Shown here piece after piece: positions 134-19,187 of a DNA stretch of 64,000 nucleotides. The notes under the pieces are model-generated. The model saw only the letters and a list, made by a program, of their open reading frames with translations. It made no database searches and was not told where the DNA came from. A program made the translations under genes and the position numbers. The stretch lies in IMG/VR virus record IMGVR_UViG_3300028591_000077; one strand, written 5' to 3'. Numbering within the stretch: the stretch's first letter is position 1; each line of letters starts with the position of its first letter. This DNA is from a virus (taxonomy: Duplodnaviria; Heunggongvirae; Uroviricota; Caudoviricetes).

Positions 134-200
134 GAGCCTGTGCTTATTTCATTACCCGCTAGTTACGGGTGCCAAAATCTTCGCCACAACTAGCCAGGCC
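134..200 (+). ncRNA. Bulged-stem element 1, enclosing an anticodon-like hairpin (loop CT AGT TA)
   Basis: GA GCCTG T GCT TATTTC ... AGC CAGGC C; inner ACCCG/CGGGT stem with 7-nt loop. Confidence 0.75.
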
Positions 201-224
201 TCAAAAAGGCTATAACATAATTTA

Positions 225-279
225 GAGACCATACTTACTTCAAAGAACAAACCTTGAAATTTGTAAAAACAGTTGGTCC
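225..279 (+). ncRNA. Bulged-stem element 2
   Basis: GA GACCA T ACT TACTTC ... AGT TGGTC C; inner ACAAA/TTTGT hairpin, loop CCTTGAAA. Confidence 0.75.
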
Positions 280-365
280 AAAATTATGTTTTTTTATTTT
301 ATGTAAAAAAATTAAAAAATAACTGTATAATATAATGTGCAAAGATAAAGCACACAAAAACTCGA

Positions 366-416
366 GAGCCTATACTTATTTCTTCAGAAATATGGTATTC
401 TAAAAACAGTTAGGCC
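366..416 (+). ncRNA. Bulged-stem element 3
   Basis: GA GCCTA T ACT TATTTC ... AGT TAGGC C. Confidence 0.75.
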
Positions 417-520
417 AATTACTTATTAAATAATGTAGGCGCTTGAGGTAGATCTGGATTCAGTTATACTTCGGCGCCTTTATTTAATAAAAATCTTGGG
501 TAAACAGAAAAGGAGATTTT

Positions 521-2476
521 ATGGGAAAACCAACAATCAAATCAATCTTAGCCGCTCGTCATTATTTAATTGTCGATAAGGCCCCAGAAGACAAGAACAT
601 GTCTGCCTATTACAATGCATTTTTGCTTGCTAATTTTGGCGTCATCGTTGATCGTCCTCACATGTTAACTCGTGAAGCAGTTAACGTTATCGCTGATACT
701 TTTAAGCTTAACGTTCCAGCAAGCTTCTACGATAACCCTCAACACATGGCTTATTTTTCTAAGTCAGAATTGCTTATCGAGCAACTCGTTTCCTATTTCT
801 TAGTTGAAACCGGAACTGGAATCTATAGCCGTCCTGAAATCTTTGAAAAGGATTTACCTGAGTATAAAGTCGGCAACGAAATCAAACTTCGTGAATTCAG
901 AATCGTCAATGCAGAGGAAGCAGTTGAAATCCTTAAAGGCATCTGCGATGCTTTCTGTGATTACACTCGTCCATTCTCTATCGATGAATTAGCTGAGTTC
1001 GAATATCTTTTCGTCAACGGTTATTACACCGGAAAAGAAATCAAATGCCGCGATAACATCTTTACTCTTTTGAAGCACGATGCAAGCTTTGCGCGCTTCT
1101 TGGATAAGAAAGATATGGTTAAGCTTTCTATCGCTTTCTTCGGGGAGCACAGAGAGTTTAGACCTGCAGATGAGGAAAAACTCGCTCTTATCAGAACTTG
1201 CTTACCTTACGTCCGTAATTGCCCAATGAGCAAAAAGCAAGCTAAATACTACAATAAGCTTCTTTCATACTGCAAAGTCAAAGGCGATGCTGCAGACAAT
1301 GCACGTTCTCCTTATAGACTTGCAAAAGTTGAACTTGACAAGGGTAATGTTTTAGGCGCCGCCGAAATCTTCGCCCGTAATGGTTCTTTACTTGAAAGAA
1401 ACATCAAGTTCTTGCTTTCAAGAGCTAACCCTGTCGAAGCCGTTAAGATCATCGAAATGCTTCCAGCAAAGAATCCAATGGTTCTTTATCAGATGATTTC
1501 AGCTATGTCTGAAGACAAGACAGATGGACGTGTATTCTCCTTTACTAAAAATAATAAGGTAAAACGTCATGTTGAAACCGATTATGAAGCTAAATGGAGA
1601 AAGTCCAAGCTCAACGACGCTACTAAGACTTTACTTCACGATATCGCTATCGAGAAGATCAAAGACTCTTATAGAGCAATGGGTTCTTTAGGTAAAGTTT
1701 ACGTCTCCGACGCATTTAACTTACTTGGAATCCCATCCAATACATCTGCTGGTGGAAAGGGCATCGATGTTCTTCCAACCGGTTCTCGTATCGTCTGCCC
1801 ATTCAACAAAATCCGCACTTTCGTTTACTGGGACGGAATCCGCGACGTTGACGCTTCCTTGGTTTTAGTCAAGAAAGACGGTAGACAAGATACCATTTAC
1901 TATGGTAACTACTCCAGCAAGCCATTTGGCACCAGCATTCTCTTCTCTGGAGACTGCCGTGATGTCAAGGGTTCTGAATACTACGATTTAGACTTAGACG
2001 AACTTCGTGCTAAGGGCTACGTCTCAGTTCTTTACACCCTTAATGGCTTCGGTGGAAAATTCACTCAAGGCGAAACCTTCTGTGGATACCAAAACAAAGA
2101 AGACCTTAAGACTCGTGCTTGGGATCCTAAAAACATCGCAATGCAGTTCAGAGTCGCTGGTGATTCTTCTCAAGTCCTTGCCTTCGGTATCGATTTAGAG
2201 ACAAATGCAGTGGTCGTCTTGAACCTTGTTCGTGATGCTTACAACAGAACTGTCAACTCCAGTGAAACAGATTCTGTCGCTAAGTACATGAAAGCAAGCT
2301 TCTTAGAGCTTAACATGGGCTTAGTTGCTTCATGCAGAGGCGAAGTCGTAACTGACCCAGCCGAAGCTGATATCGTCTTTGACGACAGCTATATGCCTCT
2401 TGAAGGTCAAAAGGTCGTAAGAACTTATGATCTTGAAAAGCTCGTTGCTATCGCAAATGGAGGGGAGGTAAAATAA
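521..2476 (+). CDS. Large protein with C-terminal TerD-like domain and helical N-terminal region (possibly TROVE/Ro-like)
   Basis: 651 aa, AGGAG RBS; C-terminal ...VYWDGIRDVDAS...FSGD...GSEYYDLDLDEL... resembles TerD fold; the N-terminal assignment is inference. Confidence 0.6.
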   Translation: MGKPTIKSILAARHYLIVDKAPEDKNMSAYYNAFLLANFGVIVDRPHMLTREAVNVIADTFKLNVPASFYDNPQHMAYFSKSELLIEQLVSYFLVETGTGIYSRPEIFEKDLPEYKVGNEIKLREFRIVNAEEAVEILKGICDAFCDYTRPFSIDELAEFEYLFVNGYYTGKEIKCRDNIFTLLKHDASFARFLDKKDMVKLSIAFFGEHREFRPADEEKLALIRTCLPYVRNCPMSKKQAKYYNKLLSYCKVKGDAADNARSPYRLAKVELDKGNVLGAAEIFARNGSLLERNIKFLLSRANPVEAVKIIEMLPAKNPMVLYQMISAMSEDKTDGRVFSFTKNNKVKRHVETDYEAKWRKSKLNDATKTLLHDIAIEKIKDSYRAMGSLGKVYVSDAFNLLGIPSNTSAGGKGIDVLPTGSRIVCPFNKIRTFVYWDGIRDVDASLVLVKKDGRQDTIYYGNYSSKPFGTSILFSGDCRDVKGSEYYDLDLDELRAKGYVSVLYTLNGFGGKFTQGETFCGYQNKEDLKTRAWDPKNIAMQFRVAGDSSQVLAFGIDLETNAVVVLNLVRDAYNRTVNSSETDSVAKYMKASFLELNMGLVASCRGEVVTDPAEADIVFDDSYMPLEGQKVVRTYDLEKLVAIANGGEVK

Positions 2477-2670
2477 TGCCTGCTACTCCAACCGATGCTG
2501 AAACATTACGTCTTCTTGCTAGGCGCGTTGAACGCCTAGCAGAAGAGTATGAACACAATGCTCCGACATTAATCAAAACCACAGAGCTTAGATTAATCAA
2601 TGAAGCATGTCAATCATTGCTTGATAGCTTAGAAGCTGAATTAGATGCAAAACAAGGGCAAGAAAATTAA
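2476..2670 (+). CDS. Hypothetical protein
   Basis: 64 aa, overlaps upstream stop (TAATG), GGAGG RBS. Confidence 0.7.
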   Translation: MPATPTDAETLRLLARRVERLAEEYEHNAPTLIKTTELRLINEACQSLLDSLEAELDAKQGQEN

Positions 2671-2740
2671 TCTTGCCCTTTAATTTTTAAAAAATTTATT
2701 GTATTATAAAATATAAGGAAAAACATTCGCTAAATTAAGT

Positions 2741-2848
2741 ATGAGACATTCAGTTATTACATTACAACGCACAGCAACAACCGTAGCGACATTAGATATA
2801 GCCGCTGCGATTTTAGACGTGCAAGATTCTGGAGGAATCCACAAGTAA
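2741..2848 (+). CDS. Leader peptide 1 (35 aa, MRHSVITLQRTATTVATLDIAAAILDVQDSGGIHK)
   Basis: Follows GCTAAATT motif; codons 5-29 are only V/I/T/L/Q/R/A/D, matching the downstream tRNAs. Confidence 0.8.
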   Translation: MRHSVITLQRTATTVATLDIAAAILDVQDSGGIHK

Positions 2849-2932
2849 TTAAAACTGGTTGTTAAAACTCTTAATAAACTATCGTATAATATAATGCAGC
2901 AAACCTGCATGGTACGATAGGCTAAATCGGTA

Positions 2933-2968
2933 ACTTGTGGGTTCGCGAATAGCGAACCCTATTTATTT
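2933..2968 (+). terminator. Attenuator terminator 1
   Basis: GGGTTCGC-GAATA-GCGAACCC then T-rich tail; 2933-2944 also pairs with leader 1 end 2835-2846. Confidence 0.75.
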
Positions 2969-2980
2969 GGAAAAAAAGTG

Positions 2981-3009
2981 TTTACAAAAGATTAATTCTA
3001 TTGTATAAT
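2981..3009 (+). promoter_or_regulatory. sigmaA-type promoter (same architecture at 5221, 7678, 18624)
   Basis: TTTACA-17 nt-TATAAT, with TG just upstream of the -10. Confidence 0.8.
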
Positions 3010-3029
3010 AATACTGGAGCTGCTGAAAT

Positions 3030-3105
3030 GGTTCCTTACGTCAATTGGGAGACTATCATCCTTACAAGATGAAGGTTGCAGGTCCGAGTCCTGCAGGGAC
3101 CACCA
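3030..3105 (+). tRNA. tRNA-Val(TAC)
   Basis: Cloverleaf, CCA, T-loop TCCGAGT. Confidence 0.9.
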
Positions 3106-3110
3106 ATTAT

Positions 3111-3186
3111 GCTGGTTTAGCTCAGTTGATAGAGCAGCTCCCTCGTAAAGAGCAGGTCGGGAGTTTGAGCCTCTCAACCAGCACCA
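3111..3186 (+). tRNA. tRNA-Thr(CGT)
   Basis: Cloverleaf, CCA, T-loop TTTGAGC. Confidence 0.85.
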
Positions 3187-3190
3187 ACAT

Positions 3191-3265
3191 TGGGATGTAG
3201 CCAAGCGGTAAGGCAGGAGGCTTTGAACCTCCGATGCGCTGGTTCGAACCCAGCCATCCCAGCCA
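3191..3265 (+). tRNA. tRNA-Gln(TTG)
   Basis: Cloverleaf, CCA. Confidence 0.95.
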
Positions 3266-3499
3266 ATTAGAATATGACAGCCGAAAAGATCGCCACTTAG
3301 TAAGCTTGAATAGAGTAGGACTGATAGCTTCCGAATAAGCTATCATGTATAACATGCTGAGACAAGATTCTCAGAAGGGTTGACTTGACGCCATAGGTTC
3401 AAGCAGAGGGTACAGCGCAATTTCTACGTAGTTGTTGCCGAGGCCAAATAGTGCAGGCATGGGAAGAAAGCACTCTAAAAAATGTGCAACACCAGATAT

Positions 3500-3574
3500 T
3501 GAGAAGTCGTCAAGCGGTAAGACGCCTGTCTCTGAAACAGGTCATCGATGGTCCGAATCCATCCTTCTCAGCCA
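3500..3574 (+). tRNA. tRNA-Gln(CTG)
   Basis: Cloverleaf, CCA, T-loop TCCGAAT. Confidence 0.9.
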
Positions 3575-3665
3575 TTACCTATTTGCTCATACTAGTTGAG
3601 AGCAGACAAAAAAGAACGCTAGGTGAAACAAATTTTTAAAGGTTTAGGTTTGGAGTAGCCAATTT

Positions 3666-3750
3666 GCGGGTGTGGTGAAACAGGTAGACGCAAGGGACTT
3701 AAAATCCCTCGGCTTCGGCCGTGTCGGTTCGAGTCCGACCACCCGCACCA
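3666..3750 (+). tRNA. tRNA-Leu(TAA)
   Basis: Long variable arm, CCA. Confidence 0.95.
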
Positions 3751-3753
3751 TAT

Positions 3754-3814
3754 GGGTTTATAGTAAGCTCTGGTGAGCAAGCGCGCAAGTTCGGTTCGAT
3801 TCCGGAATAAACCC
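3754..3814 (+). ncRNA. tRNA-like RNA lacking an anticodon arm
   Basis: GGGTTTAT/ATAAACCC acceptor, GCTC-TGGT-GAGC D-like arm, TTCGG-TTCGATT-CCGGA T arm. Confidence 0.55.
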
Positions 3815-3920
3815 TAAACCAAGAATGGATTCTGGTGAATCCGAGTAGGTGAAGAAGAGTTCGAGTCTCTGAACTGTCTGGTTCGATTCCTGGCAGTGCA
3901 GGTGCAAATCCTACAACATT

Positions 3921-3995
3921 GGTCGTATAGCTCAATGGCAGAGCGGGCTCCTTATAAGGGCTAGGTTCCTGGTTCGAATCCAGGTGCGACCACCA
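3921..3995 (+). tRNA. tRNA-Ile(TAT)
   Basis: Cloverleaf, loop CT TAT AA, CCA. Confidence 0.9.
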
Positions 3996-3999
3996 ATAT

Positions 4000-4074
4000 G
4001 GGCCGATAGTTTAATTGGGAAAACACCCGCCCTGCAAGCGGGAGTTACGGGTTCAATTCCCGCCGTGTCCACCA
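4000..4074 (+). tRNA. tRNA-Ala(TGC), irregular acceptor stem
   Basis: Loop CC TGC AA, G3:U70 present, bulged acceptor. Confidence 0.6.
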
Positions 4075-4079
4075 AATAT

Positions 4080-4155
4080 GGGGCTGTAACTCAGCTGGGA
4101 GAGTGCCTGCTTTGCAAGCAGGATGTCGAGGGTTCGATCCCCTTCAGTTCCACCA
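4080..4155 (+). tRNA. tRNA-Ala(TGC)
   Basis: Canonical cloverleaf, CCA. Confidence 0.95.
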
Positions 4156-4364
4156 AGGCGAAGGACAACGCTTAATAACCAGTCTCATAAGCGAGAGTAT
4201 GGGTAACCAGTCCCAGAGGGTAGTGAAAGAGACAAGAATATAAGGAAAGAACCGGGATTACGCCTTATCGCGAATGGGCGCCCAATGAACCCCTAGAGAC
4301 GGTGAAGCTGCAGACTAGATAACGAGCTAAGGGGAAGTGTGGAGTAAATACCTTATATTATCAT

Positions 4365-4440
4365 GCCGCCATAGCTCAACTGGCAGAGCAATCGCCTTGT
4401 AAGCGATAGGTTGATGGTTCGATTCCGTCTGGCGGCACCA
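4365..4440 (+). tRNA. tRNA-Thr(TGT)
   Basis: Canonical cloverleaf, CCA. Confidence 0.95.
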
Positions 4441-4568
4441 GTTCAGATATTTCTGAATCGTGAGCTGACACGTATAAATCCGACACAAAGCCGCAAGAAA
4501 TGGGCGGCAACACTAATTAGTCGTAGGTGACGGACACCAGAACAAAATCAGCATCATATAACTAAATT

Positions 4569-4642
4569 GCCTCTTTAGTTAAATGGTATAACGAATCCAT
4601 GGTAAGGATTAATCGGCGGTCCGATTCCGTCAAGAGGCACCA
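4569..4642 (+). tRNA. tRNA-Thr(GGT)
   Basis: Cloverleaf, CCA, T-loop TCCGATT. Confidence 0.9.
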
Positions 4643-4650
4643 TTAAATTT

Positions 4651-4725
4651 GGGTCAGTAGGCTAACGGTTAAACTGTCGCACTGTCACTGCGATGTCGAG
4701 GGTTCGACTCCCTCTTGGCCCGCCA
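4651..4725 (+). tRNA. tRNA-Asp(GTC)
   Basis: Cloverleaf, GCCA end. Confidence 0.9.
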
Positions 4726-4730
4726 TATAT

Positions 4731-4826
4731 GCAGTTGTGATGCAACTTAGAAGACATCCTTGGTGATGAGCCGAGGTCAACGCAAATCGAAATAATTTGT
4801 TGAAGGTGCAAATCCTTCCATCCGCA
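4731..4826 (+). pseudogene. Degenerate class II (Leu-like) tRNA
   Basis: T arm GAAGG-TGCAAAT-CCTTC, mismatched acceptor, non-canonical anticodon loop TGATGAG, no CCA. Confidence 0.5.
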
Positions 4827-4833
4827 ACAATTT

Positions 4834-4908
4834 GGAGTCATAGTACAGCGGTTAGTATACCTGACTGTCACTCAGGAGATGAGGGTTCAACTCCCTCTGG
4901 CTCCGCCA
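4834..4908 (+). tRNA. tRNA-Asp(GTC)
   Basis: Cloverleaf, GCCA end. Confidence 0.95.
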
Positions 4909-4911
4909 TTA

Positions 4912-5036
4912 GAACCAGTACTTATTTCTTTTTCGCCTTACATGCGAGAGGTCGTTGGTTCGAGTCCAACCGTCGCGGCACGGGTGACGTGTAGCGACGT
5001 AGCTCAGTTGGGAGAGCGCTTATTACTAGTCTGGTC
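4912..5036 (+). ncRNA. Bulged-stem element 4: circularly permuted tRNA-Val(TAC) body with closed acceptor hairpin
   Basis: 3' half (anticodon, T arm, CGTCGC) at 4934-4976 precedes 5' half (GCGACG, D arm) at 4994-5020; ACCAG/CTGGT stem. Confidence 0.85.
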
Positions 5037-5043
5037 AAAATTT

Positions 5044-5119
5044 GGGGTTGTAGCTCAATTGGGAGAGCACTTGTCTGGCAGACAAGAGGTTGCGGGTTCA
5101 ATCCCCGTCGATTCCACCA
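5044..5119 (+). tRNA. tRNA-Ala(GGC)
   Basis: Cloverleaf, CCA. Confidence 0.9.
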
Positions 5120-5123
5120 ATAT

Positions 5124-5201
5124 ACCCTGTTAGCTCAGCTGGATTAGAGCGTGTGGCTACGAACCACAAGGTCGTGGGTTCGAATCCTACACAGGGTGCC
5201 A
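5124..5201 (+). tRNA. tRNA-Arg(ACG)
   Basis: Cloverleaf, CCA. Confidence 0.9.
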
Positions 5202-5313
5202 AAAAAATTATACAATACTATTTACTTTTTAGAAAAAATATTGTATAATATAATAAGCGAGCAAAAAAGATTCGCTAAATTAAGTAGTCGCAAGACAGAA
5301 AGGTAGTTAACGT

Positions 5314-5403
5314 ATGAAAAACTTGAACATGCATGCTTATCATTACGGATTTGAAGGCTATGAAGGCTTCGGTTTTTTGATGCGCTCTGACCACCGATAT
5401 TAA
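5314..5403 (+). CDS. Leader peptide 2 (29 aa, MKNLNMHAYHYGFEGYEGFGFLMRSDHRY)
   Basis: GAAAGG RBS; codons 9-23 are only Y/H/G/F/E/L(TTG)/M, matching the downstream tRNAs. Confidence 0.85.
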   Translation: MKNLNMHAYHYGFEGYEGFGFLMRSDHRY

Positions 5404-5437
5404 TTAGTAAATTCGTCGCATTGAAAATATAAAACAA

Positions 5438-5469
5438 GGGTGGTCAGATAATGATCACCCTTTAATTTT
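5438..5469 (+). terminator. Attenuator terminator 2
   Basis: GGGTGGTCA-GATAA-TGATCACCC-TTTAATTTT; 5439-5448 is the exact complement of 5386-5395. Confidence 0.85.
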
Positions 5470-5471
5470 AT

Positions 5472-5556
5472 GGGTAGGTAGGTAAGTGGCTAAAACCAGC
5501 TGTCTGTAAAACAGCCGCCTTCGGCTTCGTGTGTTCGAATCACACCCTGCCCACCA
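5472..5556 (+). tRNA. tRNA-Tyr(GTA)
   Basis: Long variable arm, CCA. Confidence 0.9.
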
Positions 5557-5560
5557 CTAT

Positions 5561-5646
5561 GGGAGCGTATTCCGTTAAGGACACGGGGCAGTCTGTAAAA
5601 CTGTTGCCATTCGGCTGGCTGAGTTCGATACTCAGAGCTCCCACCA
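5561..5646 (+). tRNA. tRNA-Tyr(GTA)
   Basis: Long variable arm, CCA. Confidence 0.85.
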
Positions 5647-5650
5647 ATAT

Positions 5651-5727
5651 GGTGTATGGAATCCGACGGTTTTGGATGCTAGTCTGTGAAACTAGATCAT
5701 TGGGTTCAACTCCCAGCATGCACCCCA
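5651..5727 (+). tRNA. tRNA-His(GTG)
   Basis: G-1:C73 pair, CCA. Confidence 0.85.
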
Positions 5728-5732
5728 GTCAT

Positions 5733-5808
<76 letters not shown>

Positions 5809-5812
5809 TTAT

Positions 5813-5889
5813 GCTCCTCTAGCCCAACTGGTAGAGGCAATGAGCTCAAACCTCATTCAGTGTCGGTCCGAATCCGACGGGGAGTACCA
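5813..5889 (+). tRNA. tRNA-Leu(CAA), short variable loop
   Basis: Loop CT CAA AC, 5-nt variable region, T-loop TCCGAAT. Confidence 0.85.
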
Positions 5890-6030
5890 AAAAGATTATA
5901 AAATACTTACCAAAGTATTGTATAATATAATAGCTTCAAAGTGCTGGAAGTTGTGGCACGCGTATTGAGAGGTTGCAAACTCGAAAATATGAGGGGTTAG
6001 GTAGGGTCTGACTGAAGCTTCCATTTACAT

Positions 6031-6116
6031 TGCGGTAGAGTGGAACGGACAATTATAAACCATCCGCGGCTCATAACCGATGGGATACCGGGTTCGACTC
6101 CCGAGTACCGCAACCA
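6031..6116 (+). tRNA. tRNA-fMet(CAT)-like, enlarged D loop
   Basis: Ends CCGCAACCA as initiator tRNAs do; loop CT CAT AA. Confidence 0.7.
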
Positions 6117-6210
6117 GAGGCGTGTTGTTTGTCAATTTAAACCTTACCTCGCGCACAAGGCGTAAAAATTGAAGGCTTAAGATGTTGTGCCAGAACAAAG
6201 CATCATCCAT

Positions 6211-6286
6211 GGCCGAGTAGCTCAGCGGTTAGAGCAGGGAGCTCATACCTCCAAGATCGGTGGTCCGAATCCACTCTCGGCTACCA
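6211..6286 (+). tRNA. tRNA-Met(CAT), probably elongator
   Basis: Loop CT CAT AC, ends GGCTACCA, T-loop TCCGAAT. Confidence 0.85.
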
Positions 6287-6363
6287 GGATATATATTCAA
6301 TTTCGCCAAGACTAGAGCACAGCCATTCATAAGGGCTGTGTAGGAGAATCCCTTGGCAACCAT

Positions 6364-6874: not shown

Positions 6875-7101
6875 GAGCCTATACTTATTTCTAGGACTGA
6901 AAATCCCCGTGTCCCTAGTTCGAATCTAGGCTCTCCCACCATAGGAGCCAATACTTATTTCGGATTCCGCGGTAGCTTAAAAGGTAAAGCCCCCGATCTA
7001 TAATCGGGAGATTGTCGGTTCAAGTCCGACCCATGGCATTGTGAGTTTGGCCACTTTGGGAGAGTAGCTCAGTTGGTAGAGCAGGAGTTAATAGTTAGGC
7101 C
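6875..7101 (+). ncRNA. Bulged-stem element 5: circularly permuted tRNA-Phe(GAA) with a nested element
   Basis: 3' half with CCA at 6894-6941, 5' half GGGAGAG+D arm at 7058-7085; outer GCCTA/TAGGC stem. Confidence 0.9.
6945..7052 (+). ncRNA. Nested bulged-stem element 5b enclosing a tRNA-Ile(TAT)-like cloverleaf (about 6966-7038)
   Basis: GA GCCAA T ACT TATTTC ... AGT TTGGC C; CCCGA-TC TAT AA-TCGGG anticodon arm, T arm, no CCA. Confidence 0.8.
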
Positions 7102-7243: not shown

Positions 7244-7323
7244 TAGACTAAACTTATTTCAAAGCCTTAGTCCCACAGGGACTATATAAAAATGAAGATC
7301 AAAATTGGCCGCACAGTTAGTCA
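7244..7323 (+). ncRNA. Bulged-stem element 6
   Basis: GACTA A ACT TATTTC ... AGT TAGTC. Confidence 0.7.
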
Positions 7324-7456: not shown

Positions 7457-7529
7457 GAAACTACACTTATTTCAAATTTTTCTAATCTACACTTACCATA
7501 GAAAAATTGGCCACGACAATAGTTAGTTC
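7457..7529 (+). ncRNA. Bulged-stem element 7
   Basis: GA AACTA C ACT TATTTC ... AGT TAGTT C. Confidence 0.7.
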
Positions 7530-7562: not shown

Positions 7563-7645
7563 GAGCTTATGCTTATTTCAAATGGTTATAGAAGGTTCGA
7601 TTCCTTCACCGTCCGCCAATCCCGGACAGTGATATTAGCTAGGCC
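7563..7645 (+). ncRNA. Bulged-stem element 8: permuted T-arm/acceptor mini-helix with GCCA
   Basis: GAAGG-TTCGATT-CCTTC-ACCGTCC-G-CCA then GGACAGT; GCTTA/TAGGC stem. Confidence 0.75.
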
Positions 7646-7735: not shown

Positions 7736-8342
7736 TTCGAGTGTTCTTTGAGAAAGGATTTATGTTGAACCATGTGCAGAGGGATTACCTCCTTGCATGG
7801 AAGTTGGCTAAATAACGCGATAAATTGTGGGATACTGCAATGTAAGCTAAGACCTGTATTGAAAGATACGGGTATTCCTGTCAAAACGTGATCATTGACA
7901 GGCTAAGCTGATTGTGCAACATGTTATGGTACACAAAGCAATTCTGTCTAGGCTCGTCCGATAAGAGGCTCTGGGAGCAATCTCATCCCGCCTGTGGAAT
8001 TAAGCCTGAGAAACTTAGTTCCCGGCATCTCAACCTAAGGATAGTGACGTTTTGAAGCGGCGAAAGCCGTGTATAAGAGCTGACAGAAGTACGAGTAGCC
8101 GTATGACGTCGTTCGATCAAGTATAAAATTGAAGAATGTGATTAATTTCTTCCTTGCTGAAGTTCGGTGAAAGTTGGGGGACATCAATTCCCTCTATTGT
8201 TCGGTGCTAGTCACCAATTTGTGAAGACCAAGGTCGCGCCTTGGCTCTCAGCCACAAGTTAATATGTGCGAATATGTGGAATAATAAGTGTTGTAAGATG
8301 AATAAAAGTCTCGCTTAGATCATTTCTCAAAGAATACTCGAA
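7736..8342 (+). ncRNA. About 600-nt structured ncRNA (ROOL-like candidate)
   Basis: 20-bp terminal helix 7736-7755/8323-8342, promoter immediately upstream, many internal hairpins, no ORF. Confidence 0.65.
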
Positions 8343-8632: not shown

Positions 8633-8747
8633 GAGCTCATACTTATTTCTAGCATTGGGAGCCGGTGTTTGCAGGTTCGAGTCCTGCCTCCCCGACCATT
8701 ATCGGGGAGTAGGCAAATTGGTAAAGCCGCTGTTTAATAGTTGAGCC
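8633..8747 (+). ncRNA. Bulged-stem element 9: circularly permuted tRNA-Pro(TGG)
   Basis: 3' half with CCA at 8652-8698, 5' half CGGGGAG+D arm at 8703-8732; GCTCA/TGAGC stem. Confidence 0.9.
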
Positions 8748-8767: not shown

Positions 8768-8829
8768 GAGCCTATACTTATTTCCGCCAAGAGGCAATTT
8801 CCTTTTAAGAAATCTATGATAGTTAGGCC
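8768..8829 (+). ncRNA. Bulged-stem element 10 with a Lys(TTT) anticodon stem-loop
   Basis: ATTTC-CT TTT AA-GAAAT at 8797-8813. Confidence 0.8.
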
Positions 8830-10870: not shown

Positions 10871-11261
10871 GGGCTCGTACTGGTTTCGATTGGTATTTGA
10901 TGTTTATAACTACAGCAAGCTGATAACTTACTATCAAACAAAAACAAACGACAAAACTTTAAACCCTGCATTTATTGCCTCCAACAGATTCGTTGGTGCT
11001 CGCGCCTAATTTAAGGCCATAGTAGTCGAGAAGTAAAACTGAGTTAGATTGGTCGAGTTTAACTCTTTATAATCAGACCTCGGTCAAGAGAACATTAGCT
11101 TTATTAGATATCTTGATTTAAATCAATAAATAAGCTATCTGCGCGCCCCGTTGTGTTTGAAAAGGAGCGGACAGAGAAATATTCATGAACACATAAAGCT
11201 GTAATTGACGTTATAGGGGTTTGGTATCAAGACCGGGGTTCGACTCCCCGCGGGTCCACCA
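10871..11261 (+). ncRNA. ssrA: tmRNA
   Basis: GGGCTCG...GGTTTCGA 5' end, G3:U acceptor, T arm and CCA 3' end, tag frame ...KTNDKTLNPAFIASNRFVGARA*. Confidence 0.9.
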
Positions 11262-11690: not shown

Positions 11691-11787
11691 AGGGGATTAC
11701 GATAATTGGCAAGTCCGTCGGTCTTCAAAACCGATCAATCCGGCTCCAACCCGGAGAGCGCGGGTTCGATTCCTGCATCCCCTGCCA
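11691..11787 (+). tRNA. UGA-decoding tRNA (anticodon TCA), Trp-like acceptor with long variable arm
   Basis: AGGGGAT/ATCCCCT-G-CCA, TCGGT-CT TCA AA-ACCGA, TCCGG/CCGGA variable stem. Confidence 0.85.
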
Positions 11788-11790
11788 GTA

Positions 11791-11847
11791 GAGCCTATGC
11801 TTATTTCAAAAACATCAGACTGCAACTCCGATTAATGAAGCTAGGCC
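11791..11847 (+). ncRNA. Bulged-stem element 11 with a Cys(GCA) anticodon stem-loop
   Basis: ATCAGA-CT GCA AC-TCCGAT; loop identical to that of tRNA-Cys at 19780. Confidence 0.8.
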
Positions 11848-11872: not shown

Positions 11873-12541
11873 ATGAATAAAAGAGTAAAAACGTTTCTAT
11901 TTGCAATTTTTGCCGGTATTGCCATTGGCGTCGGCGGATTGCTTTTTATTTTATCAAAAACATATATTCCAGGTAATTGGGGTAATATTGTCGGTTCGTT
12001 GTTATTCCCGGTTGGATTAATTACAATTTGCTATTGTAAATTTAATTTATATACTGGAAAAATTGGCATTGCTCCAAATAAAGGTGTAAATACTAATGAT
12101 TTGAATGTATTTGAGTGGCTAGCTTGGATTCTATTAGGCAATATTGTCGGAGCGTTTGCCTTTGGATTGTTAGTTTATCCATTCACTTTGCTTGGAGGAA
12201 GCTTCGCCGATACCGTCCATGCTATTGGGTTAGCAAGGGAAACCATGGATCCGATTTCAATGGCTGGAACATCTGTCTTATGCGGAATCTTAGTTTATAT
12301 TGCGGTTTATTTCTTCAATAAGTCTGATGAGTACTTCGGCAAAGTCGTCGGTGTCTTGGTTCCTATTGCGTTCTTCGTATTAGCCGGATTTCAGCACTGC
12401 GTTGCCAATATGTTCTATATGGCGGCTTCTGGTAGTTGGACATTGGCGTCTACTCAAGCACTAGTAGGTTGTATCTTAGGTAATTCTTTCGGTGGATTGC
12501 TTGCCAATTTGCCGGTTGTATATTTTAAAGGAGCTAAATAA
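11873..12541 (+). CDS. Formate/nitrite transporter (FNT, FocA/NirC family)
   Basis: FPVGL...LYTG and AGFQHCVANMFY motifs, multiple TM helices. Confidence 0.9.
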   Translation: MNKRVKTFLFAIFAGIAIGVGGLLFILSKTYIPGNWGNIVGSLLFPVGLITICYCKFNLYTGKIGIAPNKGVNTNDLNVFEWLAWILLGNIVGAFAFGLLVYPFTLLGGSFADTVHAIGLARETMDPISMAGTSVLCGILVYIAVYFFNKSDEYFGKVVGVLVPIAFFVLAGFQHCVANMFYMAASGSWTLASTQALVGCILGNSFGGLLANLPVVYFKGAK

Positions 12542-13037: not shown

Positions 13038-13051
13038 AGGAGAATGGAATT

Positions 13052-13168
13052 ATGATAACTATATTGGCAGTTTATGGTATCGGACTAGGGATTTTGAACA
13101 TTTTAACCCTTGGAATTCTATTCTATTTGAAATTTGGTCAAAAATTATTGGCTAAATTAAAACGGTAA
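13052..13168 (+). CDS. Small membrane peptide (38 aa)
   Basis: AAGGAG RBS, hydrophobic. Confidence 0.5.
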   Translation: MITILAVYGIGLGILNILTLGILFYLKFGQKLLAKLKR

Positions 13169-13182
13169 AATATTTACCATTA

Positions 13183-13263
13183 CATAGAAAAAAAGCACAA
13201 CCACAGTGATGTGGCGTCGCAAAGCTATAGGGCCTTGGAGGAAGGCAGCCAGTTGCTTCTGTG
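13183..13263 (+). promoter_or_regulatory. c-di-GMP-I (GEMM) riboswitch
   Basis: GCACAA-CCACA GTGA TGTGG-CGTCGCAAAGCTATAGGGCC...GGCAGCCAGTTGC matches the GEMM core; lies in the 5' UTR of the operon. Confidence 0.8.
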
Positions 13264-13305
13264 AGTTAATCATGGAAGTTTTTTATTTATAAGAAGGAGA
13301 AAACT

Positions 13306-13923
13306 ATGAAATTAAGAAACAAATTAGCAGCTATCACAGCTGCAGCAATGTTAGCATTTACTGGCGTTGGTTTTGCTGCATGGACATTTGCTAATGAAAA
13401 ATCAGCTAATGTTGGTGGAGACAATGTTGTTACTTGTGCAGTTGAAACAAAGAACTTAGTTATTGATGAAGGTTATACTAAATTATATTTAATTTTTGAT
13501 GCGCCAGCAGCTGGAACTACTGGTTCATTAAAGGCTGGTGAAGGTATTTTCTTTGCAACAGATAAAGAGCCAGATGCTGAAACCGGATTATATACTAAAG
13601 TTACATCTCTTACATTAACTGGTTCATTTGAACATACAGATAATGATGCTCATTACAACCATGCAGTAAGTTATACTTTTGATTGCACACCTACTAATAC
13701 TTTAAGTGCTACTTATGTAACACAAACAGCTGCTGGAAGCTTCGATGCAAATGTAACAGGAGCAACTTCAACTTTTACAGATGTTTCAACTGTTTACACA
13801 CTTCCAACATTTGATTATACTGCTGCGGTTAAAGCTTACAATCATGCGTCAGAAATGTCTGCTATGATTACTTCTTTAAATGACTCAGAAGTATCATTTG
13901 CATTTACGTTTAATATTGACTAA
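13306..13923 (+). CDS. Secreted protein with SipW-type signal peptide (TasA/camelysin-like)
   Basis: MKLRNK...GVGFAAWTF N-terminus; adjacent to signal peptidase. Confidence 0.6.
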   Translation: MKLRNKLAAITAAAMLAFTGVGFAAWTFANEKSANVGGDNVVTCAVETKNLVIDEGYTKLYLIFDAPAAGTTGSLKAGEGIFFATDKEPDAETGLYTKVTSLTLTGSFEHTDNDAHYNHAVSYTFDCTPTNTLSATYVTQTAAGSFDANVTGATSTFTDVSTVYTLPTFDYTAAVKAYNHASEMSAMITSLNDSEVSFAFTFNID

Positions 13924-13938
13924 TTAAGAGGTTAGTTT

Positions 13939-14757
13939 ATGAATTCAATTACGATTATAACAATAGTCGTAGTTGCACTCTTAACTGTAGTTATCTTTGG
14001 ATTAGCTTGGCTAGGTTATAGCTCTTGTTTAAAAAGCTATAAGATGGAAGTTGACCAAGGAAAGCATGATGCTGAAATATTCAAAGAGTATCATTCAAAA
14101 AAGAAAAACAAAGGAGGACTAATTGGACTTATTGGTTCATACTTAGCCCTCCTTGCTTTATCTGGGCTATTCATAACTGGAATAGTTTATAAAGCTAACG
14201 GTGAAAACTTCACCATCAATAATCAAACTGCCCTTGTGATTAAATCAGGCTCTATGTCTGAATTCTATGATGATGAACTTGCCGAACAATATCAATTACT
14301 ACATTATGATCCATCACTTCAATTTAGTGTAGGAGATATCTGTGTTTTTGAAAAAGTATCAGATGATACTAAGTTAGCTAAGGGTGACGTCTACGGCTAT
14401 AAATATAAAGATATTATTATCACACACAGATTAATAGATGAAACAGAAGACGGATTCTATAGATTTAGGGGCGATAATAATCCAGTTGCAGATCAATTAC
14501 TAATAAAACGAGAAAATATTGTTTATCATTATACTGGTAATAAGGTTCCTGGACTTGGTGCTTTTGTTTTATATGCTCAATCATATTTTGGTATGTGGTC
14601 AATGGCTGGCATTGTAGGCATAACTATTAGCTCTGAAGTGGTCTATCATAAAATAGATAAAATCAATAAAGAGCGTAATGAGCTTCTTGATCCTGGGTTC
14701 AAGTTAGAGCCTCCAAAACAAAAAGAAAGAAAGCGAGGTAAGAAGCATGAAAAGTAA
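13939..14757 (+). CDS. Signal peptidase I, SipW-like (S26)
   Basis: VIKSGSMS, GDI, ITHR, FRGDNN motifs, TM segments. Confidence 0.85.
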   Translation: MNSITIITIVVVALLTVVIFGLAWLGYSSCLKSYKMEVDQGKHDAEIFKEYHSKKKNKGGLIGLIGSYLALLALSGLFITGIVYKANGENFTINNQTALVIKSGSMSEFYDDELAEQYQLLHYDPSLQFSVGDICVFEKVSDDTKLAKGDVYGYKYKDIIITHRLIDETEDGFYRFRGDNNPVADQLLIKRENIVYHYTGNKVPGLGAFVLYAQSYFGMWSMAGIVGITISSEVVYHKIDKINKERNELLDPGFKLEPPKQKERKRGKKHEK

Positions 14758-15685
14758 ATTTTTATTGTTTCTAGCCGGTTTATTCGCTATTACTGCTTTA
14801 TTTGGGACGACTTATTCTGCTTGGGCTTTTACAAATACTACTGATGTAACCAATAATGTTCAAGTTGAAGTTCCTACTTGGACATTTGGTGACCAAGGTC
14901 TTGCCAAAATCGAAAATATTTCTGGTTTAAGCTATTTAACAGCTGAAAAAGAAGAAACTATTACGCAGGGAAGCACTGAGGCAGTTAGATTCACAAATAC
15001 CGGTGGAACTCATGCAAGAGACCATATCTTCTATGTCGATTTAGACCAAGATTATGATTTATACGATATAGCTACTTGTAAGATTGAATTTGATTACTAT
15101 CATACTTATAAGAGAGAACAAAAAGATAAAGGTTTCCCAAAACTTCAATTATTCCATGATAGTATTGGCAGAGGAGCGGCTCAAGGCGGCGATGATACAA
15201 TAACTGAAATCGCACCTTATGTTGTTACAAACATCGATGAAGATTGGTGGCATTTGGAATATTATATCACTTCTATGTGCCCAACAATTGCCGACCATCA
15301 AGATAAGCCACAAAATAACTATAAAGTAAATCGTATTAAATTTGCTGATAGAGGAGTTTATGACTACGCTGATGTAACTGGCTGGTTTGTTATGGACAAT
15401 TTAATGATTACAAATGAACCAGGGGCTAGATTAGGTCTATTTAATAGAACTGCCGGCGATACAGTTGGAAAATTCTTCTGGTTTAAGGTTGCTTGGTCTG
15501 GTGATCTACATTCTTGTATTCTTACAACAAGTGACCCAAGTTTGGCTGTTTGGGATGATGAATCTACAAAGAGCCCATTCTATGTTAAACTATTAGCAAA
15601 AGGTCAAGTTGTTATTACAGCTACCCTTGAAATTGGAAGCAATCACGAGATATTCACAATTTCTAATACAATTACAATAAATTAG
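14747..15685 (+). CDS. Secreted protein with SipW-type signal peptide
   Basis: MKSK...GTTYSAWAF N-terminus. Confidence 0.6.
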   Translation: MKSKFLLFLAGLFAITALFGTTYSAWAFTNTTDVTNNVQVEVPTWTFGDQGLAKIENISGLSYLTAEKEETITQGSTEAVRFTNTGGTHARDHIFYVDLDQDYDLYDIATCKIEFDYYHTYKREQKDKGFPKLQLFHDSIGRGAAQGGDDTITEIAPYVVTNIDEDWWHLEYYITSMCPTIADHQDKPQNNYKVNRIKFADRGVYDYADVTGWFVMDNLMITNEPGARLGLFNRTAGDTVGKFFWFKVAWSGDLHSCILTTSDPSLAVWDDESTKSPFYVKLLAKGQVVITATLEIGSNHEIFTISNTITIN

Positions 15686-15699
15686 TTGTATAATATAAT

Positions 15700-15869
15700 G
15701 TAACAGCCACACATTGCCGCCGTGGTCGGAGGAGCGGATTGATCCCCGCTTAGTACTGGATAAGGGCGGGTCTAGCCAACCTGTGCACGAAATTCTGGAA
15801 ATACAAAAGGCGATCCATAATGCAAATGTTACAAATAAAAAGAGCTTATTAAGCTCTTTTTTAATTTTT
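15700..15869 (+). ncRNA. Unidentified structured small RNA plus terminator
   Basis: Own promoter, GTAACA/TGTTAC end pairing, GC-rich hairpins, AAAAAGAGC-TTATTAA-GCTCTTTTT terminator. Confidence 0.45.
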
Positions 15870-15888
15870 TTACTGTATAATAATATAG

Positions 15889-16160
15889 TTCCCCTGTGTC
15901 GGGGGTCCTGGTGTTAAAAAGTGGTCGTCATTGCCGGCCCGGCTGCCTCAGTAAGTCGCGGTTACTGATATAACCCGGTGTCCTTGCGGACTGTTTCCAG
16001 GAATAACGAGCGCGAGCCCACCTAGTCGGAGAGTCAGACTGCAACACCTGACGTTAAATCAATGTTCCTCCGTGAATAGGCAGTGGGAGAAGAGTAGGAT
16101 ACAAATGACAGCGTGCCCGCAGAAGAAACTAAGCCTTAAAAACGTCGAAAGACGTTTTTT
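15889..16160 (+). ncRNA. Unidentified GC-rich structured RNA plus terminator
   Basis: Own -10 TATAAT, non-coding, ends in AAAAACGTC-GAAA-GACGTTTTT. Confidence 0.45.
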
Positions 16161-16362
16161 ATAAACTGGCTAAAAATATTGGCTAAATTTAAGATGCAGA
16201 ATAATTTAATAAAAAAATCTGCTAAATTATGTGTACAATATGAAAAATATATTGTATAATATGTAAAGCAAGTGAGAACTTGCGAATTAATCTTTGAAAT
16301 GATCGCCTTCATGGCCGCTTCCTGTCCTAAGTATGACGTTAAACTGCTAGATAATTTAGGAG

Positions 16363-16584
16363 GTGCCTATGAAGTATTACGTGTTAGATGGCGAAGTCAA
16401 TCGCCAGCCTATCAAGGAGAAGATGTTTGCTACTAGGGCTGCTGCTGAAAAAGCAATGGAAGGTATTCTCTACAGAGAAAATCTCCAAGTCCAAGAAGAC
16501 AGATTCCCTTCTAAGCACACCGAAGAATTCGTGTGTGACAGATGCTCTAGATTCTTTGTTCGCAGAGTTGTCTACGGTGAATAA
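16363..16584 (+). CDS. Hypothetical protein
   Basis: AGGAGG RBS. Confidence 0.7.
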   Translation: MPMKYYVLDGEVNRQPIKEKMFATRAAAEKAMEGILYRENLQVQEDRFPSKHTEEFVCDRCSRFFVRRVVYGE

Positions 16585-16589
16585 TCTAT

Positions 16590-18300
16590 AGCAAAAGTCA
16601 AGGCACAAACTAATTGGCCCGGAAACGGGAAAATGGAACTTCCGAAATCGTGGAGGATACAGAGACTAGCGATCAAAGTTAGTTAGAAAGTCTTGACATT
16701 CTTAGGTAGTTTCGCGTAAGCGTTTCTATATTTAGAGCTTAAAAAGCACTCACAGAGGAAAACACCGAAATGTTCCAAAGGAGCTGACGAAATCCTAAGC
16801 GTCTATAAACAAAGTTTAGTGGAGCTTTATGAGCGAGTGGTTGATTACCCGACGTTCTACTCTATGGAGTATTAAGAGGTTGGTAGGGGTTAAAGTTGTC
16901 TACCTATAATCACAAAACAACTGCTTCCTTGGCTAATTTAGTCCGGTAGGAAGATTATCAAAAGAGAGGTTAAGCATTCCTCCCCACATTGTGGTATTCC
17001 TTAATTGGATTCCTTCGATAATTTATTATCACTTATTGCTTGGCGGGCTAGGCAACCGCCCTCCTTCTGTAACCTAGCTTATGCAGAACGGTATTTTCTT
17101 GGGATATACTTTAGGTATGTCCTCTGATGTGGCCGACCCAACGGGCAGTTTGAGGTGCGACTCCTCAATTGGTCTCAAAAAGCCCACGCAGCAGTAACCA
17201 GGGCTAATACTAAGACGTCAAAACGTGAAAGAGCCTGCTGCACATATAATTTAAATAAGCTTACGGGGGCTTGTCCGGAACGGGCGACGAGATGGTTAGA
17301 ACTACAGGTCAGGGAAGCAGCTGTAACACCATACGTTCCGCTAAGGTTTGTGAAAATATTAACCCAGGTGCTTGCTTGCAAGATGCTGACTAACACAAAC
17401 TATATGACCATGATTTAAATTATATCATTGACTGGGGAATTATTCCGAGCCCCTATGAATCAAAAAAGATCGGCGTCGAAGCAACGAAAGCCGCCATGTT
17501 GTCCGTGCACGGCGAGAGAAGGAACGGTCTAACGCAGCTGTCTACGGGATTGATTCGCCCGTATAGATGCCACTGAATACCCAAAGCTGGGGCTGCTGAT
17601 AAAGTAAAGGTCGACGACGTGGTTTGCGGTAGCTGACTTAGACTCAGCCTTAGACCAAGTATCGTGATCAGTCGACGGAAGCACGACAAAAACCGCATAT
17701 ATTGATATTATCTATAGCAATATAGTTAATATATCAACTTCCTGGCTTGAATAGGTGAGATGTTTGACTAGGAATTATTTGAACAGTTAGCAACTGGATA
17801 AAATTGCTCAATCTCACAAATAATCTTTTGAAAAGGAAGCTTAATTGCACCTATGGTTAGTCTTTCCATCCTTAAAAGGCATTAGTTCCACCATACACGG
17901 TACTGAATGTTGTTTGATTAGTAGTTACATATAAGGTTTGTTATAGACTACTTTGCGAGTTTCAATTAAAGGTGCCAACCACTAAGGTTGACAATAACCG
18001 CCTTATCATATGAAAATCAAGTCAGTGGACTACCTCCGCCTTATTAAGGTAATTAACCGAACTTAGTATTTGGTATAGATGAGTGACAAAGCCAGTAGAA
18101 CTCCAGGATGGGTTGATAAGTGTATATGAAAGAATGTGGCTAAGCACTTCCCGCTTATTGTAAAACTGACCCAAGTAAATCTAAGAACCTGCTAGTGAGG
18201 TTGTGCTCACATTTACTGTTTTATAAGCGATTGGCATTTAGTCTCTGTTGACATCGCTTACAGCAAGGGAACAAATCCGCAAAAACCCTAGCCACATATT
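16590..18300 (+). ncRNA. 1.7-kb non-coding structured region, probably several large ncRNAs
   Basis: No RBS-led ORF, GC higher than background, many hairpins. Confidence 0.5.
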
Positions 18301-18367
18301 TAGTTAAAAATTGGTAGAAATACCGTATAATATAATATAGAATAAAGCAAAGGAGCTTAAAAGTTAT

Positions 18368-18550
18368 ATGTTTGATATCTTAGTTAATGGTCAATTAGTC
18401 GCAATTGCAGCAGAAGGTGTTACAAAGATTTTTTGTAATGCTCTTATTAATGCACTTCCAAGTGAGATTTCAATTACCTCAAGAAGACATGTTGAACCTG
18501 CCCCACAAGCGCCTGAAACACCAGAAACTGAAGAAAGTTCTGCCAAGTAA
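18368..18550 (+). CDS. 60-aa protein, probable leader peptide 5
   Basis: AAGGAG RBS; TGT/AAT/AGT/GAG/TCA/AGA codons followed by a strand complementary to the downstream terminator. Confidence 0.65.
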   Translation: MFDILVNGQLVAIAAEGVTKIFCNALINALPSEISITSRRHVEPAPQAPETPETEESSAK

Positions 18551-18576
18551 TTAAATAAGTTAATAAGGCAAATTAA

Positions 18577-18612
18577 GGGTAGGTTCAATATAAAGAATCT
18601 ACCCTTTTATTT
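18577..18612 (+). terminator. Terminator 5 (possible attenuator)
   Basis: GGGTAGGTTC-AATATAAA-GAATCTACCC-TTTTATTT; 5' arm pairs with 18494-18503. Confidence 0.75.
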
Positions 18613-18675
18613 TAAGAAAACCATTTACAAATAATTATAAATATCGTATAATAGTAGTGTGAGAAATCACGAACT

Positions 18676-18752
18676 GCCCTGGTAGCTCAACTGGATAGAG
18701 CAACGGTCTTCTAAACCGTAGGTTACAGGTTCGAGTCCTGTCCAGGGCGCCA
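18676..18752 (+). tRNA. tRNA-Arg(TCT)
   Basis: Canonical cloverleaf. Confidence 0.95.
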
Positions 18753-18757
18753 TAATG

Positions 18758-18844
18758 GAGAGTTGGCCGAGCGGTCGAAGGCGTCTGTCTTGAAAACAGA
18801 AGTAGGGCAACCTACCTGGGGTTCGAATCCCTAACTCTCCGCCA
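18758..18844 (+). tRNA. tRNA-Ser(TGA)
   Basis: Long variable arm, GCCA end. Confidence 0.95.
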
Positions 18845-19042
18845 TCGTCTGTTCATCGAAAAAGAAAGGGAATCGCATCACCCAGACGTTAAATAACATC
18901 GATGACGTTACAGCGTTCGGATAAGCTGCGAAGAGAGCGAAGGAGCTTGTAGGTCGATAGCCGCTTAATGAGCGAATGCGGAATCGGGTAACATACTAGG
19001 TGTGGAAATTCGCAGAATCACCGAAGACCTACGATTATATAT

Positions 19043-19117
19043 GGGGCTATAGTCCAAAGGTTAGAACTCCCGACTGTTAATCGGAGAATCTGTGTTCGAG
19101 TCACAGTAGCCCCGCCA
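19043..19117 (+). tRNA. tRNA-Asn(GTT)
   Basis: Cloverleaf, GCCA end. Confidence 0.85.
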
Positions 19118-19120
19118 GAA

Positions 19121-19187
19121 GAACCTATGCTTATTTCTAGCTCATTGTGAGCGTCAAACTGGTAATTTGAAGGTATTTAGCTAGGTC
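19121..19187 (+). ncRNA. Bulged-stem element 12 with a Thr(GGT) anticodon stem-loop
   Basis: ACCTA/TAGGT stem; TCAAA-CT GGT AA-TTTGA at 19154-19170. Confidence 0.8.

Follow-up and report, generated by a model that had tools for sequence, protein, structure and literature searches.

Through its tRNA-like domain, a Y RNA of the YrlA type that is bound by Ro60 ties proteins recognising transfer RNA (tRNA) to its protein partner or draws them off real tRNAs. Such RNAs (RF02553) are bound by Ro60/Rsr in bacteria and in phages, and the Ro60-binding motif near the YrlA 5' end reads GNCGAAN0-1G (Chen et al. 2014, PMC4201824). Circularly permuted tRNA genes, which are processed via bulge-helix-bulge motifs, have been described in Cyanidioschyzon merolae and in some archaea (PMC4090602). 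The present work concerns 13 small RNA elements in a 64-kb stretch of DNA (64,000 nt, hereafter the window) that belongs to a giant phage from sheep or bovine rumen (IMG/VR record IMGVR_UViG_3300028591_000077). Each element closes with a bulged terminal helix of constant design, which we call the handle, around an exchangeable interior, which we call the cargo. Our results confirm that the handle RNAs are a real, covarying RNA family. They are best read as Ro60-independent relatives of Y RNAs that have expanded and diversified in a giant phage, and since phage and bacterial copies alike are paired with one protein family, the whole resembles a relative of the Ro60/Y-RNA particle that has yet to be described.

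The elements resemble YrlA in that a terminal helix is formed between their two ends, that a conserved YUAY follows the 5' strand, that some interiors are permuted and tRNA-like (T arm, loop-closed acceptor, D arm) and that the RNA gene adjoins a protein gene. The YrlA-type architecture proposed in an earlier note on this DNA was borne out, and a constant bulged terminal helix is combined with exchangeable tRNA-derived cargo. The sequence U-UAY is invariant in handle copies, i.e. a YUAY is present after the 5' stem strand. Moreover, one bacterial relative can be aligned over the whole YrlA model (41 bits), its handle falling on the YrlA inner helix and its UAY on the conserved YUAY (CUAc), with the GNCGAA of the outer helix missing (cf. 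PMC4201824). Unlike YrlA, the handle lacks GNCGAAN0-1G in all 84 distinct copies, and the TROVE domain (PF05731) was absent from five complete related genomes, where control genomes did match, and from the 29 open reading frames (ORFs) of the window that were scanned; the linked protein is of a helical/TerD type. In most copies there is no tRNA body and the cargo consists solely of anticodon arms or hairpins of other kinds; some copies retain a complete anticodon loop. The domain made of T arm, closed acceptor and D arm is found in three of the 13 window copies (those starting at 4912, 6875 and 8633) and partly in the copy at 7563, the others being without it. A single phage can hold up to 13 copies, some of them nested, and all stay below the Rfam gathering score. 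For RF02553 this score is 69, and the best matches in the window reach 31 bits (Element 4, at 4947-5020) and 26 bits (Element 10), only over model positions 24-84, which correspond to the tRNA-like core. Given these absences, and a candidate partner without a Ro60 fold, the suggestion of a Ro60-type RNA was not sustained. The handle covariance model described below (R1) gave no match in the FelixO1 region that holds a Ro60-like gene and a tRNA array, and a profile comparison (hhalign) of the linked protein with the FelixO1 Ro60-like protein returned a probability of 0.4%, i.e. no profile similarity. Judged from sequence, the FelixO1 Ro60-like system and the phage handle are treated here as separate families.

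With the permuted tRNA genes of the bulge-helix-bulge type, the elements share a 3' half that comes first, paired termini with a bulge and, in some copies, a link running from CCA over a spacer to G1. They differ from these genes in that the handle is not of the 3-4-3 form (3-nt bulge, 4-bp helix, 3-nt bulge) but has a 1-nt bulge between six and three pairs, that the point at which the handle interrupts the anticodon stem on its 5' side is not constant, that many acceptors are sealed, that the same handle helix also holds non-tRNA cargos, and that the context is a bacterial phage. In the literature on related themes we found neither the handle described nor any report of tRNA-like RNAs in permuted form within the tRNA arrays of phages.

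A covarying handle in phage tRNA arrays

All 13 copies proposed earlier were recovered, all on the + strand and each with a 3' partner complementary to its 5' motif. When the window was searched for the pattern GANNNNNNRCTTAYTTC with at most one mismatch, 20 matches were obtained against a mean of 6 in shuffled sequence, and none of 100 shuffles reached 20. At the 13 proposed coordinates stand 12 exact matches and one 1-mismatch match of the 5' motif GA-N6-RCT-TAYTTC, all between 134 and 19137. In every window copy AGY-N5'-C stands 46-228 nt downstream, and 12 of the 13 have downstream the exact reverse complement of RCT and N5, that is, of the eight paired bases; the remaining one, at 7563, pairs its N5 with one G.U. 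The copy at 7244 has U for G1 and A for the trailing C, a compensatory change that supports the G1-C pair. The covariance model that the earlier note had called for was built as R1. It recovered all 13 copies in the window; no further match had an E-value under 0.1, and the - strand gave none.

The same pairing was seen in related phages. IMG/VR was seeded with one 17-mer variant of the handle, and the 46 loci obtained were then scanned for any N5, which yielded 99 distinct 5' motifs with at least 23 different N5 sequences. Partners within 450 nt were found for 91 of the 99. Broken down, the motifs comprise 87 with a perfect 8-bp partner followed by C, four with one G.U, one with a C:U and none with an A:C, while seven without partner are chance matches in coding regions or lie at the end of a locus. 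As a negative control, the 17-mer was followed in 120 bacterial-genome loci: its count was close to chance expectation, two of about 118 chance seeds had a partner, and true handle elements occurred in one phage-like contig only. This contig (CALCHR010000198.1, our locus L070), labelled as a Bacteroidales metagenome-assembled genome, is 19.8 kb long and carries a phage-type tRNA array with four handle elements in tandem, so that it probably stems from a phage and was assigned to the bacterial genome by binning. Among 50 short members, double-sided changes were present in six of nine pairs and 46 compensatory cells were counted against 9.7 in shuffles, although these rows had been picked for pairing and the unbiased figure is the count of 91 partners for 99 motifs.

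From 84 distinct copies the handle consensus is UA-GA-N5-U-RCU-UAYUUC...AGY-N5'-C-A, with A at -1 in 94%, the bulged U in 93% and A at +1 in about 71%, and with U at -2. The helix thus consists of G1-C, five covarying pairs, the bulged U and the three RCU/AGY pairs, followed by the invariant single-stranded UAYUUC. In related genomes the copies lie on one strand, the same as the tRNA genes, and this strict bias, together with the occurrence of G.U without A.C, argues for an RNA rather than a DNA structure. Copies start 1-4 nt past the CCA end of a tRNA or 7-11 nt past a TATAAT box, and some lie just before a Shine-Dalgarno sequence. An Rfam search of the window at gathering and E-value thresholds returned no family for the handle, and thus no full match to an already described Rfam family. 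The consensus was also compared by eye with the K-turn, loop E, T-loop, tetraloop-receptor, hammerhead, twister and integron attC motifs, none of which fits.

Cargos and the linked protein

The 90 distinct elements could be classed by cargo into single hairpins, a small hairpin followed by a canonical anticodon arm, permuted tRNA-like bodies, mini-helices of T arm and acceptor, whole tRNA-like units, folds of another kind with a length of about 100 nt, and nested copies (6875/6945 in the window, and locus L029). The class with a small hairpin and an anticodon arm has the loop C-U-NNN-A-A, with Lys UUU in six of its 12 members. Hairpins were counted as being of anticodon type when a stem of 4 bp or more carried the loop Y-U-NNN-R-N. 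Of 50 short cargos, 26 contained one, the shuffled expectation being 2.3 +/- 1.5, so that the display of anticodon loops suggested earlier corresponds to a significant enrichment; their anticodons include UUU (seven times), UGG (seven times) and GCA (three times). Concerning the cargos listed in the earlier note, the permuted Val, Phe and Pro bodies, the whole tRNA-Ile(TAT)-like unit, the mini-helix and the anticodon hairpins at 8768, 11791 and 19121 stood, while the hairpins at 134, 225, 366, 7244 and 7457 are less clearly anticodon-like.

Permuted bodies run in the order anticodon arm, V, T arm, closed acceptor and D arm. Rebuilt from their permuted copies, Phe, Pro and Val give canonical tRNAs of 74-77 nt, which are 62-79% identical to the phage's own normal genes with identical anticodons; the permuted copies thus duplicate anticodons already in the tRNA set of the phage. 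By parsing, three exit points of the handle from the tRNA body were distinguished: two interrupt the anticodon stem on its 5' side (28|29, 29|30) and one lies where stem and loop meet (31|32). In one conserved subgroup the handle stands in place of the anticodon loop. Since these exit points lie in the anticodon arm, the uncut RNA is already a tRNA-shaped three-way junction. The acceptor is closed by ACCA and a spacer in some permuted copies and by 3-6-nt or UUCG-type loops in others. Such varied junctions and closures fit a tRNA mimic better than a gene that needs cutting and rejoining. Two related loci, L019 (reverse-complement position 683) and L038 (reverse-complement position 1861), hold whole tRNA-like cargos with anticodon loops that read CUA or UUA by eye; these suppressor-like cargos may be tied to stop-codon recoding in the relatives.

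Close downstream of the first three elements lies the gene of a 651-aa protein, which the earlier note had proposed for a pull-down. It matched no Pfam family, the Pfam TerD model included, and no PADLOC family, and its only PHROG match is phrog_33734, of unknown function; more than 500 homologues were found, almost all unnamed. In the AlphaFold model (mean confidence score, pLDDT, 80) residues 427-586 form a TerD-like beta-sandwich (2qz7, Z 14.9, root-mean-square deviation 2.5 over 145 residues; 2kxt, Z 12.3), and the top clusters of the AlphaFold database that match the model bear the name TerD. The N-terminal half gave generic alpha-repeat matches only (Z 5-6), without a Ro60 fold.

Gene linkage is what designates this protein. 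Four of the five complete related genomes encode it, each time with an element directly upstream, and in all 26 loci fetched by means of the protein an element lies 26-160 nt upstream on the same strand, often with more elements just downstream. Moreover, distant homologues at 27-31% identity, on six contigs with bacterial-looking neighbours (e.g. yidC/jag, feoA, glycosidases), all keep N5-(RCU|GUU)-UACUUC...(AGU|AAU)-N5' upstream. Three of these six loci have a permuted tRNA-like cargo and four a terminator-like hairpin after the RNA; in the bacterial relatives the handle RNA is single-copy and has its own promoter and terminator. The presence of the upstream handle in six of six distant loci indicates that a separate RNA gene has been retained beside the protein across deep divergence. 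Y RNA genes are likewise kept beside rsr. By linkage, the product of 521-2476 is thus a strong candidate partner, and we propose from this sequence evidence that the handle would physically bind it.

A proposed particle and its rivals

The reading that we prefer, and to which we give about an even chance, is a Y-RNA-like particle in which the handle is docked on the helical/TerD protein while the cargo mimics parts of tRNA. The ends of the RNA would pair into the conserved handle, which would serve as docking site for the protein of 521-2476. The interior would be an exchangeable module, i.e. a permuted tRNA body with its acceptor sealed or spacer-closed, a D arm with an anticodon arm, a bare anticodon stem-loop, a mini-helix or another fold. 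Modules derived from tRNA might then offer tRNA surfaces to tRNA-recognising proteins, which would be tethered to the partner protein or titrated off real tRNAs; a decoy or adaptor role of the cargo is what we infer, and the roles as sensor or repair substrate named in the earlier note are likewise conjectural. A bolder extension, which we consider speculative and on the whole improbable, is a programmable adaptor particle in which one helical/TerD protein docks a library of handle RNAs, whose cargos (Lys, Pro, Cys, Thr and Ser anticodon stem-loops or whole tRNA bodies) capture, blind or redirect host enzymes that read tRNA, e.g. anti-phage anticodon nucleases, while bacteria keep a single-RNA version for housekeeping or stress.

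Several observations weigh against such a particle. Several cargos are not tRNA-like, and no RNA-binding domain could be recognised in the 651-aa protein. In one of the complete phage genomes (G005) the element is present, with no homologue of the protein detected, and the adjacency of the two genes could reflect cis-regulation of the 651-aa gene instead. In rumen metatranscriptome contigs the element cluster has a low depth of about 13 against about 5 in its flanks; the RNA runs are available as assembled contigs, in which expression levels, RNA ends, circles and circular junctions are unreadable and in which the joints listed derive from tRNA parts of other organisms.

The elements might alternatively carry a signal for processing or circularisation, as the earlier note had also considered: the handle would be removed and the two ends of the cargo joined. 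Permuted genes would then yield functional tRNAs once RNase P and 3'-end maturation had acted, and small circles would arise from short cargos. Such cutting and ligation occurs at archaeal and algal bulge-helix-bulge sites. By parsing, about 11 permuted cargos regain a perfect anticodon stem of 5 bp and a canonical loop when tail and head are joined at 27|28 to 29|30; Phe, Pro and Val, once rebuilt, have a fully canonical look and include ACCA, and elements nested in the spacer from CCA to G1 resemble ordinary spacers between tRNAs. This account fits about half of the permuted cargos, whereas the rest have the acceptor sealed by UUCG-type loops or the anticodon loop replaced by the handle. In the subgroup with the latter arrangement (CCAGC...GCUGG) there are four distinct members, and several acceptors are sealed by loops of 3-6 nt or of UUCG type without CCA. 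The exit of the handle (28|29, 29|30, 31|32) and the linkers (UAYUUC plus 2-6 nt; 6-9 nt) vary, hence there is no fixed cut geometry. Moreover, the stem pairs to be restored exist already in the uncut three-way junction, the phage already has the anticodons concerned, and no joined form was seen among the RNA contigs, which is weak evidence as these are contigs only. We therefore judge this account decidedly unlikely. Another proposal, unlikely in our view, is that of an end clamp or excision cassette, in which the terminal helix marks small RNAs for release from polycistronic tRNA transcripts and shields their ends from exonucleases, with no dedicated protein particle and with unrelated cargo functions. 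It would account for the position of the elements inside tRNA operons, at CCA ends or transcript starts, for the conserved base of the helix (A at -1, G1-C, A at +1), for the great diversity of cargo, non-tRNA folds included, and for N5 sequences that differ among neighbouring copies, as avoidance of mispairing requires. It leaves unexplained the invariant single-stranded UAYUUC, the bulged U and RCU/AGY, as well as the UACUUC core, which stays beside one and the same protein family even where identity has fallen to 27%, in bacteria whose RNA gene is single-copy and has its own promoter and terminator.

That the elements are ordinary YrlA-type Y RNAs using a Ro60 (Rsr) supplied by the host is very improbable. 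Phage Y RNAs are known (PMC4201824), and the permuted tRNA-like core does give the weak YrlA matches mentioned above, but these are confined to that core and remain far under the gathering score, the handle is without the Ro60-binding motif, TROVE is absent from the five complete related genomes, most copies have no tRNA-like body at all and the linked protein is unlike the phage Ro60-like protein. Repeats acting at the DNA level, such as inverted repeats of mobile elements or recombination sites, would explain short inverted repeats that flank a cargo and the presence of nested copies. They are hardly credible here, since the non-Watson-Crick exceptions on the transcribed strand are all G.U except one C:U and never A.C, the strand bias is strict and in line with the tRNA genes, an asymmetric bulge and a one-sided UAYUUC are conserved, and eight paired positions covary instead of being copied.

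If the handle does bind the helical/TerD protein, the pair would represent a second family of tRNA-mimicking ribonucleoproteins, independent of Ro60 and common to bacteria of gut and rumen and to the giant phages that infect them. Its form in phages would be unusually informative, as cargo has been swapped many times on a fixed handle, revealing which tRNA surfaces matter; anticodon arms would be the foremost of these, with Lys UUU and Pro UGG the commonest. The family may thus offer an entry point to the non-tRNA RNAs that fill the tRNA islands of huge phages, to the roles of phage TerD-domain proteins and to RNA decoys against tRNA-targeting defences, and the handle might be a natural scaffold for the display of small RNA modules.

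Elements and surroundings in the window

The individual elements are listed in Table 1.

Table 1. Handle elements of the window and the linked protein gene (positions in the window)
Feature	Position	Strand	Description	Score
Element 1	134-200	+	Handle GA-GCCUG-U-GCU-UAUUUC...AGC-CAGGC-C; cargo hairpin with 7-nt loop	39.5 bits
Element 2	225-279	+	N5 GACCA/UGGUC, UACUUC variant; small-hairpin cargo	55.5 bits
Element 3	366-416	+	N5 GCCUA/UAGGC; gene-proximal copy	54.6 bits
651-aa protein gene	521-2476	+	Helical-repeat N-terminal half, TerD-like beta-sandwich C-terminal half; candidate handle-binding partner	
Element 4	4912-5036	+	Permuted, tRNA-Val(UAC)-like; anticodon arm, V, T arm, closed acceptor, D arm	
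Element 5	6875-7101	+	Permuted, tRNA-Phe(GAA)-like; handle leaves anticodon stem at 28|29	
Element 6 (nested)	6945-7052	+	Unpermuted, tRNA-Ile(UAU)-like; acceptor stem imperfect	tRNA score 53.6 bits
Element 7	7244-7323	+	U1...A in place of G1...C; hairpin cargo, not tRNA-like	25.1 bits
Element 8	7457-7529	+	N5 AACUA/UAGUU, C bulge; long AU hairpin cargo	
Element 9	7563-7645	+	Mini-helix of T arm and acceptor with CCA; one G.U in N5	42.6 bits
Element 10	8633-8747	+	Permuted, tRNA-Pro(UGG)-like; acceptor closed by ACCA-UUAU; 1 nt after tRNA-Pro	
Element 11	8768-8829	+	Small hairpin and anticodon arm, loop CUUUUAA (Lys UUU)	58 bits
Element 12	11791-11847	+	Hairpin, loop CUGCAAC (Cys GCA), identical 7-nt loop to phage tRNA-Cys	
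Element 13	19121-19187	+	D-arm-like hairpin and anticodon arm, loop CUGGUAA (Thr GGU); between two tRNA-Asn genes	

Between Element 3 and the 651-aa gene, a hairpin followed by a U-run lies at about 436-486, in a layout that recurs in related loci. This hairpin (436-480, loop of more than 8 nt) and the promoter of Element 9, whose TATAAT box ends 11 nt upstream of the element, were read directly from the sequence, a simple promoter and terminator scan having missed both. In many relatives (L188, L186, L180, L183, L193, L197) a long hairpin and then a U-run stand between the last element and the TerD-type gene, and inside this hairpin a motif UUUUGG(U/A) recurs which is similar to the UUUGGGA loop of the element next to it. 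The hairpin may act as terminator or attenuator, or be a second protein site. Element 6 sits inside the acceptor spacer of Element 5, between ACCA and G1. The cargos of Elements 7 and 8 have the tail AAAUUGGCC(G/A)C in common, and the sequences upstream of the two are alike (GGTACGACTT...); these elements look like a duplicated pair with non-tRNA cargo.

The window contains 42 tRNA genes, a transfer-messenger RNA (tmRNA), a ROOL RNA and a cyclic di-GMP (c-di-GMP) riboswitch, and it also encodes tail fibres with collagen repeats, a topoisomerase of type II and enzymes of thymidylate and folate metabolism. A search of GenBank phages with the window gave no close relative, the matches being tRNA genes only, while related IMG/VR contigs are 220-237 kb long and rated complete. 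The ROOL RNA (7746-8331, +, 210 bits) has a strong promoter, TTTACA-17-TATAAT, in front of it, and its contig depth was 40-600 in four rumen metatranscriptomes (about 590 reached), most of the remaining stretch being at single to low double digits. ROOL adjoins handle elements in G005 (L047) and lies just upstream of handle elements and a TerD-type gene in the distant locus L200. As an obligatory partner of the handle it was rejected, being present in only one of five complete related genomes, though it recurs near the elements in three contexts.

The tmRNA (10871-11261; tag peptide DKTLNPAFIASNRFVGARA) is accompanied by a tRNA-SeC-like gene with anticodon UCA (11691-11787). Directly after the latter comes Element 12, followed by the Shine-Dalgarno sequence of a formate/nitrite-transporter-like ORF (11873-12541). 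The riboswitch, of the c-di-GMP-I class (13184-13260, 46.8 bits), precedes three ORFs (13306-15685) without Pfam or PHROG family. Three genes for calcineurin-like metallophosphoesterases are located at 20969-22482 and 52114-52866. Moreover, genes for an F420-0:gamma-glutamyl ligase-like protein, an FAD oxidoreductase, thymidylate synthase, formate-tetrahydrofolate ligase and FolD lie at 22482-26001 and 54335-61319, an unusual metabolism for a phage.

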